From contig WBXG01000003.1 of NCBI GenBank assembly GCA_008932965.1, forward strand, positions 1 to 32,000: a DNA stretch of 32,000 nucleotides. The letters run 5' to 3'. The DNA comes from Verrucomicrobiota bacterium. Lineage in GTDB: Bacteria; Verrucomicrobiota; Verrucomicrobiia; Chthoniobacterales; UBA6821. Positions 2,207 to 29,919 of the stretch are shown here, piece after piece. A program made the position numbers and the translations under genes. Within the stretch, counting starts at the first letter, position 1; every line of letters begins with the position of its first letter. The notes below the pieces were generated by a model that saw only the letters and a list, made by a program, of their open reading frames with translations, was not told where the DNA came from and searched no databases.

Positions 2207-3526
2207 TTAAAAAATTTCGACGTTTAAAAGAACTGGCTTTGCTTTAACACAGGCAAGAAGTGTTATTTTTTGAAGGGCAGCCTGCATCATACCATAACGG
2301 GCCTTGTGAATCATAAAGACAAGAGGAGTCTCTCCCTCACCTTGAGATTCAGGTTGCACCAGCGAAGAGATACTAATTCCTTCCTCTCCAAAAATCGTTG
2401 CAATCGTGGCAAGCACCCCAGGGCGATCTTCAACTGCAAGTCGCAGGTAATAGGAAGAGATGATTTCAAGAGCAGGACGACTTTTTCCATAAAGGGAATG
2501 AGGAGTAAAACCGACTAAGTGGCTTGAGACCTCGTTGGTTGGGGTAGTATGAAGTCTATGAGCTGCTGCTACCACAAGATCCCCAATGACAGAGCTTGCT
2601 GTAGGCTCACATCCAGCCCCACGTCCATAAAAAAGAGCCTCCCCGACTAGATCCCCTTTTACCGCAATAGCATTGAAGGAGCCACTCACAGAAGCCAAAA
2701 TACTTTTTTTCGGAATGAGCGTAGGACTGACTCCTACTTCGATGAAGCCATCAGCAGTATCACGAATGCTAGCTAAAAGCTTAATAGAGTAACCAAATTT
2801 TTTTGCAAAAGTGATGTCAGCTGCAGTGATTGCTTCGATCCCCTCGACTCGAACCTCCTCTGGTCGTACCCAGAAGCCATAAGCCAAGGCAGCTAGAATA
2901 ATAGCTTTGTGTCCCGCATCCCATCCACTTAGATCGAGTGTTGGATCTGCTTCTGCATAGCCACGAGCGGTCGCCTCAGAAAGGGCCTCATCATAATCCA
3001 GCCCCTCCTCTTCCATGCGAGAGAGAATATAATTGGTCGTTCCATTAAGAATTCCATGAATCGATTCAATCCGATTTCCCACAAAAGCGTCGCGTAAGTT
3101 TTGAATAATAGGAATGCCTCCAGCCACCGCAGCTTCATAAAAAATAGGAACACCCTTTTTTTTCGCAAGCGCAAAAATCTCCTCCCCTCGCTCTGCCAAG
3201 AGTGCTTTATTACCGGTAACAACAGTGCGACCCGATTCCAGCGCTCCTTTAATGAGCTCAAAAGCATCGGTGGTTCCCCCCATGAGTTCTACAATGACTT
3301 GAATCTTCGGATCACGTAAGAGATCTCTCCATGAATCGACTAGAAGGCATTTAGGAAGAATCGCATCACGTTTTTTCTTGAGGTCACGCACAGCAATAGC
3401 ACCGATCTCAAAAGAGGCCCCTGTGCGCTCTAAAAGAAGTTCCCGTTGCTTCTCTAAATATTTAAAAACCCCACCACCAACCGTACCAAATCCTGCAAGA
3501 CCGATACTGATGGGGTGAGTTGTCAT
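2207..3526 (-). CDS. hom: Homoserine dehydrogenase with C-terminal ACT-like regulatory domain
   Basis: 439-aa ORF. N-terminal Rossmann [12 protein letters not shown], and a C-terminal [31 protein letters not shown]-type segment. In hom-thrC-lysC gene order. Confidence 0.92.
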
Positions 3527-7494: not shown

Positions 7495-7569
7495 TGGCTC
7501 CAGCGGTAGGATTCGAACCTACGACCAATCGGTTAACAGCCGACCGCTCTACCACTGAGCTACGCTGGA
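7495..7569 (-). tRNA. tRNA-Asn (anticodon GTT), CCA encoded
   Basis: The minus strand reads TCCAGCG TA GCTC AGTGGTA GAGC G GTCGG CTGTTAA CCGAT TGGTC GTAGG TTCGAAT CCTAC CGCTGGA G CCA. This gives a 7-bp acceptor stem, D arm, anticodon loop CTGTTAA (GTT), T arm with TTCGAAT, 75 nt in total. Confidence 0.93.
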
Positions 7570-7600
7570 TCTAGTGCTTAAACTTTTTTCACAACACAAA

Positions 7601-7786
7601 GGGTTAACCCGCCTATTTCATACCGATTCTGCTGCGGCTTGCGAACACCTGATGGATACTGCGTCAGCTTCGAATTGCTCCTCGGGCGGTATGAAACATA
7701 CAGCCGTCGTCGCAATCCATCACTTCCTTGTCTGCATCAGGATTCGCGGCGCCTCGCGACGAATCAGTATGAAATATGCGGGTTAA
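7601..7786 (+). repeat. Full-length copy A of an inverted-repeat-bounded, GC-rich, non-coding dispersed element (MITE-like or structured RNA)
   Basis: Left end is TTAACCCGCCTATTTCATACCGA. The reverse complement of the right end is TTAACCCGCATATTTCATACTGA (21/23 identical). The element matches the reverse complement of 25697-25950 with 6 mismatches over 178 aligned nt plus one indel. It is visibly more GC-rich than its flanks. Confidence 0.85.
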
Positions 7787-7848: not shown

Positions 7849-7870
7849 TTAACCCGGATATTTCACACTA
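7849..7870 (+). repeat. Solo copy (S2) of the end motif: TTAACCCGGATATTTCACACTA
   Basis: Matches the TIR consensus. Lies 62 nt right of copy A, in the spacer downstream of the carA stop. Confidence 0.65.
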
Positions 7871-7899
7871 AATCTATTACGACTTATGAAAAGCTCCTT

Positions 7900-9220: not shown

Positions 9221-9985
9221 TTGATCATGAAACATGATTTTAATGAAAGATGTGATTCATCATCTCAAACGTACCAATATTATCATTGTTGCAGTTTTCT
9301 AGCTCGACTTTTGTTTCGAGTTTTTTGTCGAGTGCATCTCGTGATCCTTGAAACCCCTCCCAAAGAGGGTCCTTCTATCATCGCTTCCAATCATATCAGT
9401 CATTTTGAGCCAGCACTATTAGGTGGTTTTTTTCCTCGAGCACTCGATTGGGTTGCCATGGAAGAATTATTTCAACATCCACTAGGCAGATGGTTATTGA
9501 AACATCTTCATGTTATTAGCATGGATCGCTTCGGAAAAAATTTCGCACACAATCGTCACTCGCTTCGCTCTATTTTGCAGAGGCTGCGTCTTGGACGGGC
9601 TGTTGGTATTTTTCCAGAAGGTGGAATTCGTTCCGGAGAGGAATCGATTTTAGAAAAGGCCCCTATGAAACCTGGACTCACAATGCTAAGTTTCTTTTCT
9701 CAAGCCCCTGTTATTCCCTGTGTTGTTTTGGGAACGGATCGACTTTATCTTTTTAAAAATTGGCTCCGTCGTCCTCCTATTTGGATTATCATTGGAAAAG
9801 CCATGAGACCTCCCCCCAAAGAGGAGAGAAACAACGCACAAGCACGCCTCAATTTTGAAGAAAAATTAAATTCTGTTTTTCCAGCGTTACAAAAAGAGCT
9901 GTACGAACGTTTTCAATTAACTCCTGAGGACCTTCCAAAAACAGCAGCAGAAAGAAGAGGAACCAGTATAAAATATCCGGGTTAA
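9221..9985 (+). CDS. plsC: 1-acyl-sn-glycerol-3-phosphate acyltransferase-like (LPLAT/PlsC family)
   Basis: 254-aa ORF with SNHISHFEP (an HX4D-type motif, here with Glu in place of Asp) and GIFPEGGIRSG. The track start 9221 is TTG; the ATG at 9227 is an alternative start. The last codons and the stop lie inside repeat S3. Confidence 0.75.
   Translation: MIMKHDFNERCDSSSQTYQYYHCCSFLARLLFRVFCRVHLVILETPPKEGPSIIASNHISHFEPALLGGFFPRALDWVAMEELFQHPLGRWLLKHLHVISMDRFGKNFAHNRHSLRSILQRLRLGRAVGIFPEGGIRSGEESILEKAPMKPGLTMLSFFSQAPVIPCVVLGTDRLYLFKNWLRRPPIWIIIGKAMRPPPKEERNNAQARLNFEEKLNSVFPALQKELYERFQLTPEDLPKTAAERRGTSIKYPG
9965..9985 (-). repeat. Solo copy (S3) of the end motif overlapping the 3' end of the plsC-like gene
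   Basis: The plus strand reads AGTATAAAATATCCGGGTTAA. Its reverse complement is TTAACCCGGATATTTTATACT. The TTAA supplies the TAA stop codon. Confidence 0.65.
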
Positions 9986-15661: not shown

Positions 15662-17272
15662 ATGAAATACATTTTTGTCACAGGTGGGGTTGTTAGCTCT
15701 CTTGGAAAAGGCCTTGCAGCTGCTTCGTTAGGTACATTGCTAGAACGTCGAGGACAACGTGTTTCGTTACAGAAGCTTGATCCTTACCTCAACGTCGATC
15801 CTGGGACAATGAATCCGCTCCAGCATGGAGAGGTCTATGTTCTTGCCGATGGTGCTGAAACTGATCTGGACTTAGGACATTACGAGCGTTTTACCAATGC
15901 GATATTGACTCGCGCCAACAATGTGACGAGTGGTCAGGTCTATGAGACGGTCCTTTCTAAGGAACGGCGTGGAGATTACTTAGGAAAAACAGTTCAGGTG
16001 ATCCCTCATATCACCGATGAAATCAAAGCTCGTATCCGTTTGTTTCAAGAAACGATGAATGCAGATATCCTCATCACAGAAATTGGAGGAACAACGGGAG
16101 ATATTGAAGGGCTGCCTTTCTTGGAAGCGATCCGTCAATTCATTCTTCAAGTCGGTCCTGAGAATGCAATTCTCATGCATGTGACCTTAGTTCCCTTTAT
16201 TAAAGCGGCTGGAGAGCTCAAGACAAAACCCACCCAGCAAAGTGTAGCAAAGCTGCGTGAAATCGGATTACAACCCCAAGTTCTGCTTTGTAGGACAGAG
16301 CGTCCACTCGATCAGGAAGTACGAGAAAAACTCTCCCTTTTCTGTAACGTCCCACTGGATGCAGTCATTGAAGCTCGTGATGTGGAGCACTCCATTTATG
16401 AATACCCCCTCTTACTCCAGCAAGAGGGACTTGATGAAAAGGTGTGTCGCCTTTTTGGAATTCAGAGTCCTCCTGCTGAGATGTCGGCATGGCGCCATTT
16501 AGTCAAGACAATCGTCTATCCTACTCATCATGTAAAAATTGCCATTATCTCCAAATACGAATTACAAGATGCCTATAAGAGTATTTATGAATCATTAACA
16601 CATGCTGGAGGAGCCAATGATTGCGGTATTTCCATTGTGGTCGTGGATGCTGAGGAAATCGAACGCTATGGCCCAGAAAAGTATCTTGCTCATGTCTCTG
16701 GAATTCTTGTTCCAGGTGGCTTTGGAGACCGAGGTACTGAGGGAAAAATCACTGCCACTCGTTATGCACGAGAAAACTCTATTCCGTATCTTGGGCTCTG
16801 CTTAGGAATGCAAATTGCAACCATTGAATTTGCTCGGAATGTTTGTCAGCTTGCCGGGGCTAACAGTACAGAGTTTGATCCCTCCACTCCACACCCTGTG
16901 ATTTGTCTGCTTGAAGAGCAAAAGGAAGTCTCTGAAAAAGGGGGCTCTATGCGTTTAGGAACATGGCCTACCATTTTGAAAGAGGGCTCTGCAGCTCAAC
17001 GTATTTATGGTCGCTATGAAATTGCAGAGCGACATCGGCATCGTTTTGAATTTAATAACACTTATCGTGCATCATTGGAAAAAGAGGGTCTTACGGTTTC
17101 TGGAACCTCATTAGATGGAGACCTTGTTGAAATGATCGAGATTCCTAATCACCCATGGTTCATTGCAGTTCAATTTCACCCAGAATTTCAAAGTAAGCCC
17201 AATGCCCCTCACCCACTCTTTCAGGCTTTTGTGGCCGCATGCATGGTTCATGATGGAGTCCTCAAAAAATAA
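15662..17272 (+). CDS. pyrG: CTP synthase
   Basis: 536-aa ORF with [24 protein letters not shown] (GATase Cys) and [10 protein letters not shown]. Confidence 0.97.
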
Positions 17273-25693: not shown

Positions 25694-25950
25694 GGGTTAA
25701 CCCGCATATTTCATACTGGTTCGTCGTGAGGCGCCGCGAATCCAGATGCAGACACCACCGGCGGTCGGGAGACTGCGGTGGAGACTGCCCTGAAAGGGCG
25801 AGACGAGCGGGAGCAAGCGAGTCAACGAAGGTGATGGATTGCGACGACGGCTGTATGTCTCATACTGCCCGAGGAGCAATTCGAAGCTGACGCAGTATCC
25901 ATCAGGTTTTCGCAAGCCGCAGCAGAATCGGTATGAAATAGGCGGGTTAA
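25694..25950 (-). repeat. Full-length copy B of the dispersed element, inverted relative to copy A, with 76 nt of GC-rich sequence where copy A has 5 nt
   Basis: Positions 25697-25754 match the reverse complement of copy A with 3 mismatches in 58 nt. Positions 25831-25950 match with 3 mismatches in 120 nt. Positions 25755-25830 (76 nt) replace 5 nt of copy A. The same TIRs are at both ends. Confidence 0.85.
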
Positions 25951-25982
25951 CTCTTTTTGATCGTTTGATGAGAACGCTTCTA

Positions 25983-27344
25983 TTAGGGATCTGGAACAAC
26001 CTTTCTTGCTTTTTCAGATGCACGTATGACATCACGGTAGTAAAAAGCAGAAGATTTTAATTTTCTTTGGAAAGTTTTTTCATCCATTGTTGCCAATCCG
26101 AATTTGGGAACATATCCGTAGTGCCACTCATAGTTATCCGCTAGTGACCAAATGAAGTACCCTTTGACATCGTATCCTTCTTCACGTGTTTTTTGAAGCT
26201 GTGCAATGTGGTCATGAAGATATTCAATCCTCTTTTGCTCATTTAAAGTGGCTATTCCATTTTCTGTAATCATCATCGGTTTATCATAGCGCTTTCCAAT
26301 TTGACGAATCAGTTTCCCAAGAGCTGGTGGATCAATATGCCATCCCATCATGGTAAAATGAGTTCCACGATGACTTCCTTGAGTTAACATGCTCAGAGGA
26401 CCGGCTATCTGACTGTAATAATAATTAAATCCAATGATATCACAGACGTCGTAGATTTTATCAAGATGATCAAACGCATTGTGCTCAACCGTGTTGTATA
26501 TCATCCCACCAGGATCAAGTGGACCATGATACCAGTAAGGAATAGCCTCTATGCTTACAATTTTCGCATCTGGTTGGATTTCTTTAATACGAGCAGCAGC
26601 ATCACGGAAAAAGTCAGCACTAACAGCAATGGCTTGTTTATAACCTTGAAAATCTAAAGTGTGATTGGGGGGCCATAAGCCCACGATGTAAGCAGTTAAA
26701 ATTTGACCATTGGGTTCATTTTGAGGCGCGTAATAAGTGGCATAGGGAGCCATCTCCTGGACCATTCTAGAAACATAGCGATTCCAATGTGAGCGTGCTA
26801 AAGGATTCAACCAATTTGTATTTGCACCATTTTTTTTGTCCACCAACCAAGAAGGAAACGTAAAATGCCAGAGACAGACGTAGGGCTCAATCCCAGCTTC
26901 CTTGAGCTTCCGTACCATCGCAACATAGCGATGAATTGCTTCCTCGTTGTACTCCCCCGGACGAGGTTCAACACGGGCCCATTCAATACTAAAACGATAG
27001 GAATTAACCCCAATTTTTTTGAGTGCTTTAAGATCCTTATCAAAATGAGACCAGCTGTAGAGTGCGTTACCAACAGGAGGAGCTTTCTTATCTTGAACCA
27101 AAATATCCCAATCACGCTCAAAATATTCTTTTGTTCCCGATTTTTTAGAACGATCCTCATACTGCAAACTACTCGTTGAGATCCCCCAGGCAAAAGGGTG
27201 ATAGCCACTATTTTTTGCAGCTTGATGCCTTGGTGCTTTATCAAGAGGTCCTAAAGGGTGCAATGCACAACCGGTAAGAAAAAATAAAATCACTAATACT
27301 GAAAAAAAATAACATCGCATCGGTTTGGTTTTTAGAAATGTCAT
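25983..27344 (-). CDS. Glycoside hydrolase family 1 (beta-glucosidase-like) lipoprotein, paralogue 1
   Basis: FAWGISTSSLQYED, YRFSIEWARVEP, acid/base PQNEPNG, nucleophile MITENGIAT and WSLADNYEW. Lipobox-like FLTGC. The track start 27380 overlaps the upstream gene, so I prefer ATG 27344 (MTFLKTKPMRCYFF...) or 27320 (MRCYFF...). Confidence 0.85.
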   Translation of the reverse strand: MTFLKTKPMRCYFFSVLVILFFLTGCALHPLGPLDKAPRHQAAKNSGYHPFAWGISTSSLQYEDRSKKSGTKEYFERDWDILVQDKKAPPVGNALYSWSHFDKDLKALKKIGVNSYRFSIEWARVEPRPGEYNEEAIHRYVAMVRKLKEAGIEPYVCLWHFTFPSWLVDKKNGANTNWLNPLARSHWNRYVSRMVQEMAPYATYYAPQNEPNGQILTAYIVGLWPPNHTLDFQGYKQAIAVSADFFRDAAARIKEIQPDAKIVSIEAIPYWYHGPLDPGGMIYNTVEHNAFDHLDKIYDVCDIIGFNYYYSQIAGPLSMLTQGSHRGTHFTMMGWHIDPPALGKLIRQIGKRYDKPMMITENGIATLNEQKRIEYLHDHIAQLQKTREEGYDVKGYFIWSLADNYEWHYGYVPKFGLATMDEKTFQRKLKSSAFYYRDVIRASEKARKVVPDP

Positions 27345-27351
27345 CTCTGTT

Positions 27352-28245
27352 TTAGTTGGAAGAGGAGATGTAGGGAACAACCTTTAATTGATTCGCTCCA
27401 TCACGGTAAAAACCGTAAAATCCTGGAAGCTTACCAAACCAATCCATCATAGATGTCTGAAGGAAATCATGATGCTGTAGCTCCCTGTTTTTTTTCAATA
27501 CTCCATTTTTATTTCGAATTTGATCAAAAGGTAATGTGAGTTTTTGATATTCGGCATCATTCAAACGAGCCTTGGCAAGCCGCTCTGGATCATAAATGGA
27601 AATCCACCATGCCCCGAATGAGTCAGATTCGGTAGGCGGCTTAATTTTAAAAATAAATTTTCCTGCACGTTTCTCTTCCCCCTTGAGGTTAAGACTATAA
27701 AAGGTAGCAAGTGCTGAACGTGAAGAAATATAACCTGCCAAAAATTCTCGTGCGAGTTCTTGAAACTTTTCTAGCCGCTCTCCCCGTGCATAGCTACCAA
27801 GCTCAACGCAGGCAGGATCCTTAGGATTTCCATAAACATTCATCTCTCCATGATTGTTCACTTGAAAGGAGAGATAAGGGACATTTTTTAAATACCCTTC
27901 ATCGATCCTGGTAGCCGGTATCTGAAAAAAAGATTTTACCATATCATTACACCTTAGGTCTTGAACCATCATTCGCCAAGGAGGAGCCTTATCTGGGTCC
28001 ACAAGATCAGCAAAGTAGACCATGCTTTTATCAGCATCATTGATACGTTGCACGGAGGCTTTATTAATAATTCGTTCTCCTAAGGACTGCTGGAGGATAA
28101 TTTCTTTGGCATTACTTTTAATGATTAATCCTTCATAGCGTGTCCCATCTTTCATAATCACTAAATCAGGTAAAAGGCGGTCTAATCCATAAGAAATTCC
28201 AAAACAGGTATTCAAAAAGAGTAGTAATAAAATTATTTGCTTCAT
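27352..28245 (-). CDS. Secreted hypothetical protein, no recognisable domain
   Basis: 297-aa ORF with signal peptide MKQIILLLLFLNTCFGISYG. Its stop lies 7 nt before the preferred start of GH1 paralogue 1, which implies co-transcription. Confidence 0.6.
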   Translation of the reverse strand: MKQIILLLLFLNTCFGISYGLDRLLPDLVIMKDGTRYEGLIIKSNAKEIILQQSLGERIINKASVQRINDADKSMVYFADLVDPDKAPPWRMMVQDLRCNDMVKSFFQIPATRIDEGYLKNVPYLSFQVNNHGEMNVYGNPKDPACVELGSYARGERLEKFQELAREFLAGYISSRSALATFYSLNLKGEEKRAGKFIFKIKPPTESDSFGAWWISIYDPERLAKARLNDAEYQKLTLPFDQIRNKNGVLKKNRELQHHDFLQTSMMDWFGKLPGFYGFYRDGANQLKVVPYISSSN

Positions 28246-28313: not shown

Positions 28314-29633
28314 ATGTTAAGAATTCTCTTTTGCTTCCTCACTCTTGTTTTTTTTAGTAGCTGTGTTACTGCACCAGGCCATTATCACACACCTGCTAAC
28401 AAAGTTGTCCTGAAGCCACTTCCCAAGGAACCATTCTGGTGGGGCATCTCTACTGCTTCTTTTCAAAATGAAGATCGCGGCTATCCACGTAACTCATCAT
28501 GGTATTTTAAAACTGATTGGGATCGTTATGCCGAGGAGGGCTTAGTACCGCCGCGCGGAGATGATGCAGTTTTTTCTTGGAGTGAGTTTGATCGAGATAT
28601 AGCGGCAGCAAAAAAACTCGGAGTGAATCATTTTCGTTTCGGTATTGAATGGGCTCGTATTGAACCCCATCCAGGAGTGATTAATCATGAGGCCTTGAAC
28701 CAGTACGTCTCCATGGCACGCCGTCTCAAGGCCAATGGTATTGAACCCATTGTCACTCTCTGGCACTTTACTTTTCCAGATTGGCTTTATGATGGAAAAA
28801 AGAAAAACCAATCTAACTTTTCGCATCCTGATGTTCAAAAAGCATGGCATGCTCACATGGAAAGAACCGTCCATGCCCTTGCTCCCTACGTACAGATTTA
28901 CGTTCCACAAAATGAACCCAATGGGGCCTTGCAACTTGGATGGATTGCTGGACATTGGCCACCAGGACTTCTGCTTCATCCTATGGGTTATAAAAAAGCG
29001 ATGAATACTGCAGCCTCTATGTTTCGAGATGCCGCTGCAATCGTGAGAAAAGAACGTCCTGATGCCATCATTATGGGAATTTATTCACTCCCTGAATGCA
29101 GGCGTTCCTTCACTCATGACCCTACTGCCCTTATTTACAATATTTATCAACGACAAAACTACGACCACCTCGACAAGGTTGTTGATACCTGTGACATCAT
29201 TGGTGTGAACTATTATTACTCCAAAAGCTCCAGTATTCGTGAACTCTTAGTACGTCCTATGGGAGAACGAAGTTCCGAGTACACCCAGATGGGCTGGGAA
29301 ATTGTCCCTGAAGGACTTTATCGGACCCTCTGTTGTATTCGTGATCGCTATCACAAGCCTATTGTTGTTTCAGAAAATGGAATTGCCACTCAAAGCGCCC
29401 AGAAATCCATCTCTTTTTTTCGCAATCACATCGCTCAAATGCGGCGTGCTATCAATGACGGAGTCGATGTTCGAGGCTATTTTCCTTGGACACTCGTTGA
29501 TAACTACGAATGGACCGAAGGATGGCATGGACAGTTTGGGCTCTTTTCCTACGATAAAAAGACCCATGAGCGCCATATCACTCCACCAGGCATTTGGCTC
29601 AGTCGCTTTATTAAGGCATATCCCGAGCCATAA
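28314..29633 (+). CDS. Glycoside hydrolase family 1 (beta-glucosidase-like) lipoprotein, paralogue 2
   Basis: FWWGISTASFQNED, FRFGIEWARIEP, PQNEPNG, VVSENGIAT and WTLVDNYEW. Signal plus lipobox-like FFSSC. Collinear similarity to paralogue 1 throughout. Confidence 0.85.
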   Translation: MLRILFCFLTLVFFSSCVTAPGHYHTPANKVVLKPLPKEPFWWGISTASFQNEDRGYPRNSSWYFKTDWDRYAEEGLVPPRGDDAVFSWSEFDRDIAAAKKLGVNHFRFGIEWARIEPHPGVINHEALNQYVSMARRLKANGIEPIVTLWHFTFPDWLYDGKKKNQSNFSHPDVQKAWHAHMERTVHALAPYVQIYVPQNEPNGALQLGWIAGHWPPGLLLHPMGYKKAMNTAASMFRDAAAIVRKERPDAIIMGIYSLPECRRSFTHDPTALIYNIYQRQNYDHLDKVVDTCDIIGVNYYYSKSSSIRELLVRPMGERSSEYTQMGWEIVPEGLYRTLCCIRDRYHKPIVVSENGIATQSAQKSISFFRNHIAQMRRAINDGVDVRGYFPWTLVDNYEWTEGWHGQFGLFSYDKKTHERHITPPGIWLSRFIKAYPEP

Positions 29634-29641
29634 TTATCAGA

Positions 29642-29657
29642 GCATATTTCATACTGA
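29642..29657 (+). repeat. Solo copy (S6) of the end motif: GCATATTTCATACTGA
   Basis: Identical over 16 nt to the left end of copy B (25703-25718) and to the reverse complement of the right end of copy A. Begins 9 nt after the stop of GH1 paralogue 2. Confidence 0.7.
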
Positions 29658-29919
29658 TTCTTAGTGAATCTCTGAGCAGCATAATGCAGTCAGAATAGTG
29701 CATGCTAATCATGGCAAGGAAGAAAGTGCCCCGCAATGCCGTTAAGGATGCTAAACCGTTCCATTAAGAAAAGGTGGATATCGCTAATCGAAATGCTGAA
29801 GTCCAATAAAGGCATGTCATTATTTCGTCTAGTAGAGATTTCCGTAATGTTTTACATAGGTCCGGGAGCAATATATACCGGTATCTCGAACACCGCAGGG
29901 CATAGAGATGCTAATGTAT

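Follow-up and report, generated by a model that had tools for sequence, protein, structure and literature searches.

Two nearly identical repeats of opposite orientation lie in a 32,000-nucleotide stretch of DNA (hereafter the window; contig WBXG01000003.1 of assembly GCA_008932965.1, positions 1 to 32,000) from a Verrucomicrobiota bacterium of the order Chthoniobacterales, and one of them contains a GC-rich segment that the other lacks. What kind of sequence is the repeat, and what is the additional segment? The original prediction, made without database searches, offered recent mobility or a modular RNA with an optional domain as explanations. Our analysis indicates that the longer repeat, copy B, is very probably a composite of two unrelated non-autonomous mobile repeats, in which a small structured module is nested in a host element resembling a miniature inverted-repeat transposable element (MITE).

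We compared copy B with the shorter repeat, copy A, relative to which it is inverted. An inverted-repeat search paired 7595-7723 with 25831-25959 (129 nt, 96% complementary) and 7729-7786 with 25697-25754 (58 nt, 95% complementary), and a MAFFT alignment gave 3 mismatches in each arm (58 nt and about 120 nt long) and a single 71-column gap. Thus, the earlier description of an inverted second copy with arms about 97% identical and a net gain of 71 nt was correct; the high identity of the arms is due to the fact that both copies belong to the same arm subtype. The boundaries of the two copies read TTAACCCGC[A/C]TATTTCATAC ... GTATGAAATA[G/T]GCGGGTTAA. The extra segment is likewise real, but its extent had to be revised: it had been described as 76 nt replacing AGGAA, whereas relative to the canonical 184-nt form of the host it consists of 71 nt (25755-25825) that end in GAGTCAA and stand in place of one A, with the neighbouring G changed to C. 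Copy A itself is 1 nt shorter than the canonical form (183 versus 184 nt). The direct repeat and the two stems previously read in the segment are all present: GGAGACTGC occurs at 25768-25776 and again at 25780-25788, CCACCG (25755-25760) faces CGGTGG (25776-25781), and GCCCT (25787-25791) faces AGGGC (25795-25799) across a GAA loop. The 9-nt direct repeat is found only in copy B, where a private C-to-T change creates it; other module copies have GGAGACCGC / GGAGACTGC.

Both copies are intergenic and surrounded by ordinary housekeeping genes, copy B being flanked by a GH1 gene and a cytochrome c assembly protein gene, both on the minus strand. Open reading frames (ORFs) of 70 and 112 amino acids run across the two copies, and it is conceivable only in principle that they encode small proteins. 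Both frames are open and their last 16 residues are alike, but these shared residues reflect shared DNA: only the C-terminal IRGASRR[I/T]SMKYAG is common to both, and upstream of the 71-nt indel the frames differ. Furthermore, both frames end at the TAA that belongs to the target-site TTAA, the longer one (112 aa) reaches into the 3' end of the GH1 gene, and hundreds of other copies vary by indels. The doubt that the original prediction had cast on these ORFs was therefore justified.

To characterize the host, copies were gathered by an exact-pattern scan of species-representative genomes, the pattern of which biases the sample towards TTAA. At least 95 host loci were found, nearly all of them in metagenome-assembled genomes (MAGs) of Chthoniobacterales/Spartobacteria; among the matches listed, a few were in MAGs labelled Phycisphaerales, Planctomycetia, Opitutus, and Pseudomonadales. 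Terminal inverted repeats (TIRs) of 22 to 26 bp, starting with CCCG..TATTTCATAC, were present in all copies. As pairing of left and right ends showed, a length of 184 nt forms a sharp mode of the host (shared exactly by about 30 of 83 copies), which is kept at identities down to about 70%, and there is a second group at 252 to 280 nt. Such clustering agrees with the proposal of a discrete structured module and disagrees with continuous length variation. Besides, we observed a few deletion derivatives of 67 to 137 nt and tandem copies sharing their terminal TTAA. The element has no coding capacity, its ORFs being spurious.

The tetranucleotides outside the CCCG...CGGG ends conform to YTAR (TTAA, 199; CTAG, 42; CTAA, 23; TTAG, 20), and non-palindromic flank pairs are always direct (CTAA/CTAA, 4; TTAG/TTAG, 2) and never inverted. 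At L073:2404-2770, one host element is inserted in another, and the inner copy lies between CTAA/CTAA. The uninterrupted site with a single CTAA is seen in about 40 other copies, from which the inner L073 copy is absent; removal of this inner copy and one CTAA from L073 gives a canonical 184-nt host. In addition, the filled site of L089 (TTAA...TTAA) corresponds to a homologous empty site, TTGA, in L021. At one orthologous site, two related genomes (L120 and L129) differ in the variant present, a short one in one genome and a long one, inverted relative to it, in the other, which shows rapid turnover at a fixed position. The recent mobility that had been suspected is thus supported by target-site duplications, by a nested insertion, and by an empty site. 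With its TIRs, 4-bp YTAR duplication, small size, many copies, and presence/absence polymorphism, the non-coding host is a MITE-like element, and in this respect an ordinary one, i.e., a further member of a familiar kind. Its insertion takes place at YTAR tetranucleotides, which are duplicated, and a DDE-type transposase recognizing its ends presumably mobilizes it in trans. One further locus, L079:4327-4578 (OZ241746.1, labelled Pseudomonadales), has the same 22-bp TIRs and TTAA flanks around an unrelated AT-rich interior of 252 nt, as would be expected if the ends are a transposase-binding site. For this locus, either different phyla have a transposase family in common or the MAG has been labelled incorrectly. 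No match to the host TIR was found in viral contigs.

The segment nested in copy B represents a structured, strand-specific module of about 80 to 100 nt. Identical module-host junctions (...GACA/CCACC... and ...GAGTCAA/CG...) were found in at least 11 loci from at least 2 MAGs, including hosts of different arm types (e.g., L018), and most of the copies sharing these junctions measure 82 to 100 nt. In copy B, an 11-nt deletion relative to L069 and L092 has removed one hairpin of the module, P2, which other copies keep. Both this deletion and the C-to-T change are private to the window copy, as would be anticipated if the length difference between copies A and B had arisen by ordinary decay, through random insertion or duplication in one copy. 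This explanation has practically no chance of being correct, however, since the same segment with the same junctions occurs in many loci of other genomes and has homologues outside the repeat.

Within hosts, the module occupies three positions and occurs in both orientations. Other hosts carry it reversed in their apical loop (L028, L029, L071, L075, and numerous loci from metagenomes), and it is also found in rearranged right-arm contexts; at two of the module positions, empty hosts read ...ACA-A-GGAAGG... and ...GGGCA-G-TATG.... Stand-alone modules were detected at L038:7049-7133 (just 3' of tRNA-Gln) and in L025, L064, L058, and L075. A module-specific pattern retrieved at least 110 loci from metagenomes, on contigs of 41 to 65% GC. 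No host TIR was present within 300 nt of 66 of 127 tested module copies; when distinct copies no longer than 92 nt were considered, the same was true of 44 out of 124. These stand-alone copies, together with the in-gene copies described below, settle a point raised by the original prediction: the segment does occur independently of its MITE context.

In several metagenome loci, the module lies inside genes and is always in the frame that reads ...GRDERERASQ. The interrupted genes encode LpxB, the E2 linker of a 2-oxoacid dehydrogenase (sucB), GcpE/IspG, RHS proteins, and an IS110-family transposase (in frame in L139 and L170; L099 and L115 have similar flanks and appear to contain the module at the same site). 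Pfam domains are intact on either side of the module, as two stretches in LpxB, as lipoyl and catalytic domains in E2, and as three stretches in GcpE. Found alone, at several host positions, in both orientations, and in frame within genes, the module is itself a mobile unit. A protein word search with the module-encoded peptide gave no scorable match, and no module was matched in viral contigs, nor a stand-alone module in the plasmid collection. Two of the in-gene cases, L138:1318-2655 and L191:259-1560 (about 41 to 43% GC), are peculiar in that the module in LpxB and in E2 is part of a shared insertion of about 170 nt, with the shared peptides SKLA.ADEVQG and VVGRPRDRLRRA.LEQPEGRAERERASQFRKNS; this suggests a second host-element type in which the module is nested. 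In L015:1424-1640 and L117:10190-10580, we observed a 217-nt host variant in which the 5' part of a forward module is fused to the end of a reverse module (...GAGACGAGC/ACTGGTGTTGC...), which resembles the outcome of a deletion or recombination involving two modules of a single host.

A filled and an empty site of the module could be compared directly in one case. Filled L114 reads GGTGA-TCAA-TACGTG...GCGAG-TCAA-ACCTCGG, versus GGTGA-TCGA-ACCTCGG in empty L135, and the pair adjoins tRNA-Thr, by an 18-nt duplicate of the tRNA 3' end. Module junctions have neither inverted repeats nor a long duplication; there is a similarity of 3 to 4 nt (TCAA or CAA) among the module end, the left junction, and the target, and the 5' flanks vary (ACA, GTA, ATA, and TGA). 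Because TIRs and a long target duplication are lacking and only this microhomology is seen, the insertion chemistry is probably not DDE cut-and-paste, and the junctions point weakly to a single-strand or site-specific mechanism by which the module might move. As a separate observation, two stand-alone modules are situated in very small islands, one by a tRNA-Gln gene (L038:6923-7180) and the other by a tRNA-Thr gene (L114, reverse complement 2900-3200, compared with L135:6520-6775). The 3' part of the tRNA is directly duplicated at the boundary of each island (over 43 nt and 18 nt, respectively), as in remnants of tRNA-targeted integration. The idea that the module is an insert in the anticodon loop of tRNA-Gln was rejected, as the 5' half of the tRNA is absent in L038.

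The module has a characteristic fold, the elements of which are, in order, P1 (a bulged hairpin whose loop is GGGA), the trinucleotide AGA, P2 (variable), P3 (GCCC/GGGC), and a purine-rich tail ending in GAGTCAA. We assessed it by a MAFFT alignment of 35 mostly stand-alone copies and an RNAalifold consensus. In this set, 90.9% of cells are paired, compared with 73.3% in shuffles and 24 to 40% in slid controls; double-change cells number 143 against 53 ± 5.5 in shuffles, with double changes at 14 of 22 pairs; and the covariation score is 0.457 against 0.154, a value which none of 500 shuffles reached. All nine pairs of P1 and all three of P2 covary, and P1 retains its bulged base, its A-G mismatch, and its GGGA-containing loop. 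The 27-nt tail (GAGMCGAGC-N7-AGCGAGUCAA) is nearly invariant, an invariance that is partly imposed by the pattern with which the copies were collected, and two predicted helices involving it (GACU/AGUC and GC/GC) never vary and so give no covariation signal. A covariance model (R1) had its sole match in the window at 25748-25827 on the plus strand (67.3 bits, E = 4.1e-13), and 32 matches in 665 kb of host-selected loci. With Rfam 15, a scan of the window at the gathering threshold returned tRNA and 6S RNA only, and searches of copy B and two stand-alone modules at E <= 10 returned chance matches only. Furthermore, literature searches on MITEs in Verrucomicrobia/Chthoniobacterales, on in-frame palindromic elements, and on the literal tail sequence revealed neither element. 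The module seems to constitute a family not described before, and its properties are combined in an unusual way.

P1 and P2 covary strongly, certain unpaired nucleotides never change (those of the GGGA loop, AGA, and the 27-nt tail), and the module is conserved over contigs of 41 to 65% GC. The same features are what one would look for in a functional RNA acting in cis or in trans, such as a ribozyme, a riboswitch, or a small regulatory RNA, that was captured by the MITE and spread by its function. We consider this unlikely. Around stand-alone modules, 148 ORFs represent 118 Pfam families. Recombinases, HUH enzymes, and reverse transcriptases are not enriched among them, and neither Y1_Tnp nor OrfB is one of the 25 most frequent families; such an inconsistent neighbourhood argues against a riboswitch-like or gene-linked role and favours a non-autonomous element that is scattered over the genome and whose translation is tolerated, as with the Rickettsia elements discussed below. 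In addition, a captured functional RNA accords poorly with in-frame copies in unrelated essential genes and in an IS110 transposase, with both orientations in MITEs, with filled/empty polymorphism, and with the lack of an Rfam match even at E <= 10. Several specific candidates were also discarded: a hammerhead, twister, or HDV-like ribozyme (conserved cores and an Rfam match are missing), an integron attC (the core sites do not fit), and a part of an IS110 bridge RNA (the module is too short and lies inside the transposase ORF).

Several observations weigh against the reading of copy B as one mobile repeat nested in another. Many host copies have non-identical (mutated or mixed) flanking 4-mers. 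A transposase with these ends was not found among TIR pairs 0.7 to 5 kb apart in about 200 fetched loci, where the genes between distant TIR pairs were housekeeping genes (glycosyltransferase, KAS, PriA, ribosomal proteins, MFS transporter, and others); since neither an autonomous element nor a transposase was found, the mobilizing enzyme of the host can only be inferred. On the side of the module, the nearly invariant tail lacks an explanation, there is only one clean filled/empty pair, and three reconstructed junctions differ in form, so beyond that single pair we infer mobility from the distribution of the copies. The strand asymmetry of the host and the maintenance of its pairing belong to the same list. 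The host unit folds into an imperfect rod-like hairpin (copy A, -88.9 kcal/mol, z = -9.1), and the RNA fold of copy B (z = -6.2) amounts to -116 kcal/mol on the plus strand versus -99.1 kcal/mol on the minus strand. Of 46 host copies, 42 have the same better-folding strand, with a mean advantage of 12 kcal/mol. When the copy A fold was placed on the 46-sequence alignment, 81.4% of cells were paired, compared with 31 to 45% when the partners were slid, and 188 double-change cells were counted versus 95 ± 9 in shuffles, with many G-U pairs, so that arm pairing is kept; the arms are indeed mosaic cassettes that still pair. The arm-versus-arm count of G-U (239) versus A-C (169) shows a modest bias that alone does not account for the asymmetry of 12 kcal/mol. 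A plain DDE-transposon model predicts neither the asymmetry nor the maintained pairing, and both hint that a single-stranded form, RNA or DNA, is under selection. With respect to neighbouring genes, the host elements are not biased in orientation (10 same/same, 14 opposite/opposite, 17 convergent, and 9 divergent); co-transcription with the genes of the host bacterium therefore does not account for the strand asymmetry. We note separately that convergent gene pairs around the elements exceed divergent ones.

The same stable folds, the better-folding strand, and the compensatory changes and G-U pairs that maintain the rod, together with the covarying stems of the module, would be accommodated if copies A and B were members of one structured non-coding RNA gene family and the extra segment an optional domain, as the original prediction had proposed as one possibility. 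On the whole, this is very unlikely. A family of RNA genes does not account for the 4-bp target duplication, the nested insertions, the tandem copies sharing TTAA, the deletion derivatives, or the solo ends, and neither for the absence of an orientation bias relative to flanking genes or of an Rfam family match. Nor is the segment behaving as an optional domain, because it is also found free of the host, in both orientations, at three host positions, and inside protein-coding ORFs, and because the window copy lacks P2. We therefore retain the interpretation of copy B as a module nested in a MITE-like host.

As for the history of copy B, the module probably entered an internal loop of the host left arm once, and the composite then multiplied as a long subfamily, swapping arms with other host subtypes. 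Since the junction is shared by many copies in other genomes, the insertion predates the arrival of copy B at its locus, and the composite has spread as a unit. The module of copy B lost P2 later, and owing to this loss it is most likely a decaying passenger without a function there. A local function is also unlikely because the structured strand is antisense to both flanking genes, and no promoter-like or terminator-like signal stands out at the locus. The copy B locus is 100% identical in a metagenome contig (L206) of the Joint Genome Institute (JGI), and contig L207 ends inside the element. An empty site for copy B was not found, as the other contigs with a flanking gene were either identical to the window or ended inside the repeat.

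Bacterial MITEs with length variants include the Correia elements of Neisseria, BOX and RUP of pneumococci, and ERIC of enterobacteria. The host resembles them in being short, non-coding, highly repeated, and intergenic, in having TIRs, a short target duplication, and long hairpins, and in occurring in discrete long and short forms or modular combinations. It differs from them in that its long form contains a nested unrelated element and is not an internal deletion or duplication variant, that its target is a 4-bp YTAR and not TA, that its mosaic arm cassettes keep pairing, and that it resides in Verrucomicrobiota (Chthoniobacterales) and other MAGs labelled as belonging to the Planctomycetes-Verrucomicrobia-Chlamydiae (PVC) group. 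A 4-bp YTAR duplication is typical of the IS5 group, and a TTAA target with CCC...GGG ends is typical of IS1380/piggyBac-type elements. The host shares with them a 4-bp YTAR/TTAA duplication, a CCC start, and a GGG end, a likeness that makes parentage a lead only. Such a likeness would also fit the turnover of variants at one orthologous site, through precise excision and re-insertion. Unlike these insertion sequences, the host has yielded no transposase gene.

The module has other parallels. Rickettsia palindromic elements (RPE) are selfish repeats that lie in frame inside protein-coding genes. Like them, the module is in frame and stop-free in unrelated, partly essential genes (LpxB, E2, and GcpE) and is also found between genes, in loci other than the window. 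It is not a simple palindrome, however, but a strand-specific, GC-rich unit of three hairpins and an invariant single-stranded tail, and, unlike RPE, it is in addition nested in MITEs and present in PVC bacteria that are free-living. In lacking TIRs and a long target duplication, in its strand-specific bulged hairpins, in its 3' end TCAA, and in its insertion into loops of another repeat, the module is similar to the palindrome-associated transposable elements (PATEs), which are non-autonomous derivatives of IS200/IS605, and to those IS110/IS1111 elements that target other repeats. The differences are that the hairpins at its two ends are unlike, P1 alone being a bulged hairpin, that no conserved 5' target tetranucleotide is seen as in PATEs, and that no TnpA, TnpB, or IS110 gene is linked to it, except for the IS110 genes that it interrupts. 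It is possible, though we regard it as doubtful, that the module represents a previously undescribed class of small mobile element defined by a single-strand fold and moving by an RNA- or single-stranded DNA-based mechanism. Such an element would be specified not by inverted repeats but by a bulged hairpin with a GGGA loop, two further hairpins that vary, and a purine tail of 27 nt that is invariant and ends in GAGTCAA; it would insert without target duplication into loops of repeats, beside tRNA genes, and in frame in essential genes of PVC-type bacteria; and it might move through a catalytic activity of its own or with the help of an HUH, IS110-like, or reverse-transcriptase partner.

Further remnants of the host element are present in the window (Table 1). 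The terminal motif CCCGNNTATTTCATAC, with up to 2 mismatches, occurs 11 times in the 32 kb versus 0.15 expected, and none of 100 shuffles reached 11. The mini-copy is located upstream of an ORF (15662-17272) which we take, from reading it by eye, to be a putative CTP synthase gene, pyrG. The acyltransferase ORF (9221-9985) stops at a TAA that is part of the terminal TTAA of the solo end; because the YTAR target contains TAA or TAG, host elements may preferentially land on stop codons. Regarding the surroundings of these repeats, copy A lies 35 nt from tRNA-Asn(GTT) (7495-7569), and the truncated left end begins 63 nt past copy A. The 6S RNA gene (29724-29904, minus strand, 55.4 bits) has the MITE half-copy about 30 nt past its 3' end. 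Two genes for GH1 family glycosidases (25983-27380 and 28314-29633) are close together on opposite strands, and an unannotated 297-aa ORF between them (27352-28245) has no Pfam match.

Table 1. Positions in the window of copies A and B, their component parts, and other remnants of the host element
Feature	Position	Strand	Length or remark
Copy B, composite long-form MITE-like hairpin repeat with TTAA at both ends	25697-25950	+ (better-folding reference strand)	254 nt
Left target-site duplication copy, TTAA (consensus YTAR)	25697-25700		
Left terminal inverted repeat CCCGCATATTTCATACTGGTTC	25701-25722	+	Helix 1, 92.9% paired
Nested structured module without P2 hairpin	25755-25825	+	71 nt; from covariance model, alignments, and covariation
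Module P1	25755-25781		
Module AGACUG	25782-25787		
Module P3	25787-25799		
Module tail GAGACGAGCGGGAGCAAGCGAGTCAA	25800-25825		
Apical palindrome of host hairpin GGCTGTATGTCTCATACTGCC	25849-25869	+	Helix 9, 98.1% paired
Right terminal inverted repeat, reverse complement CCCGCCTATTTCATACCGATTC	25925-25946	-	
Right target-site duplication copy, TTAA	25947-25950		
Copy A, short canonical form, TTAA-flanked	7604-7786	-	183 nt; arm subtype of copy B
Truncated left end of another arm subtype (TTAACCCGGATATTTCACACTAAATC...)	7849-7891	+	Matches left arm of L017:2679-2866
Solo right end of element	9966-9985	-	Overlaps end of acyltransferase ORF
Mini-copy, internally deleted, ends joined by short loop	15553-15599	+	47 nt
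Diverged half-element	29642-29692	+	73 to 75% to copy A/B arm; adjoins 6S RNA gene 3' end

These results explain the GC-rich island and the spurious ORFs of the window as repeats. Host repeats fill a large share of the intergenic regions in Chthoniobacterales genomes, where they break assemblies, as in L207, and create false gene calls, and the host illustrates clearly how the YTAR target of a transposon can overlap with stop codons (TAA or TAG). The module adds to this a widespread and strongly covarying fold outside Rfam that is selfish-like, is tolerated when translated in one frame, and has no visible enzyme partner. If the mechanism of its mobility were worked out, small structured nucleic acids could prove to have a mode of movement that is new, and the in-frame insertions would form a natural set marking permissive sites in essential proteins.

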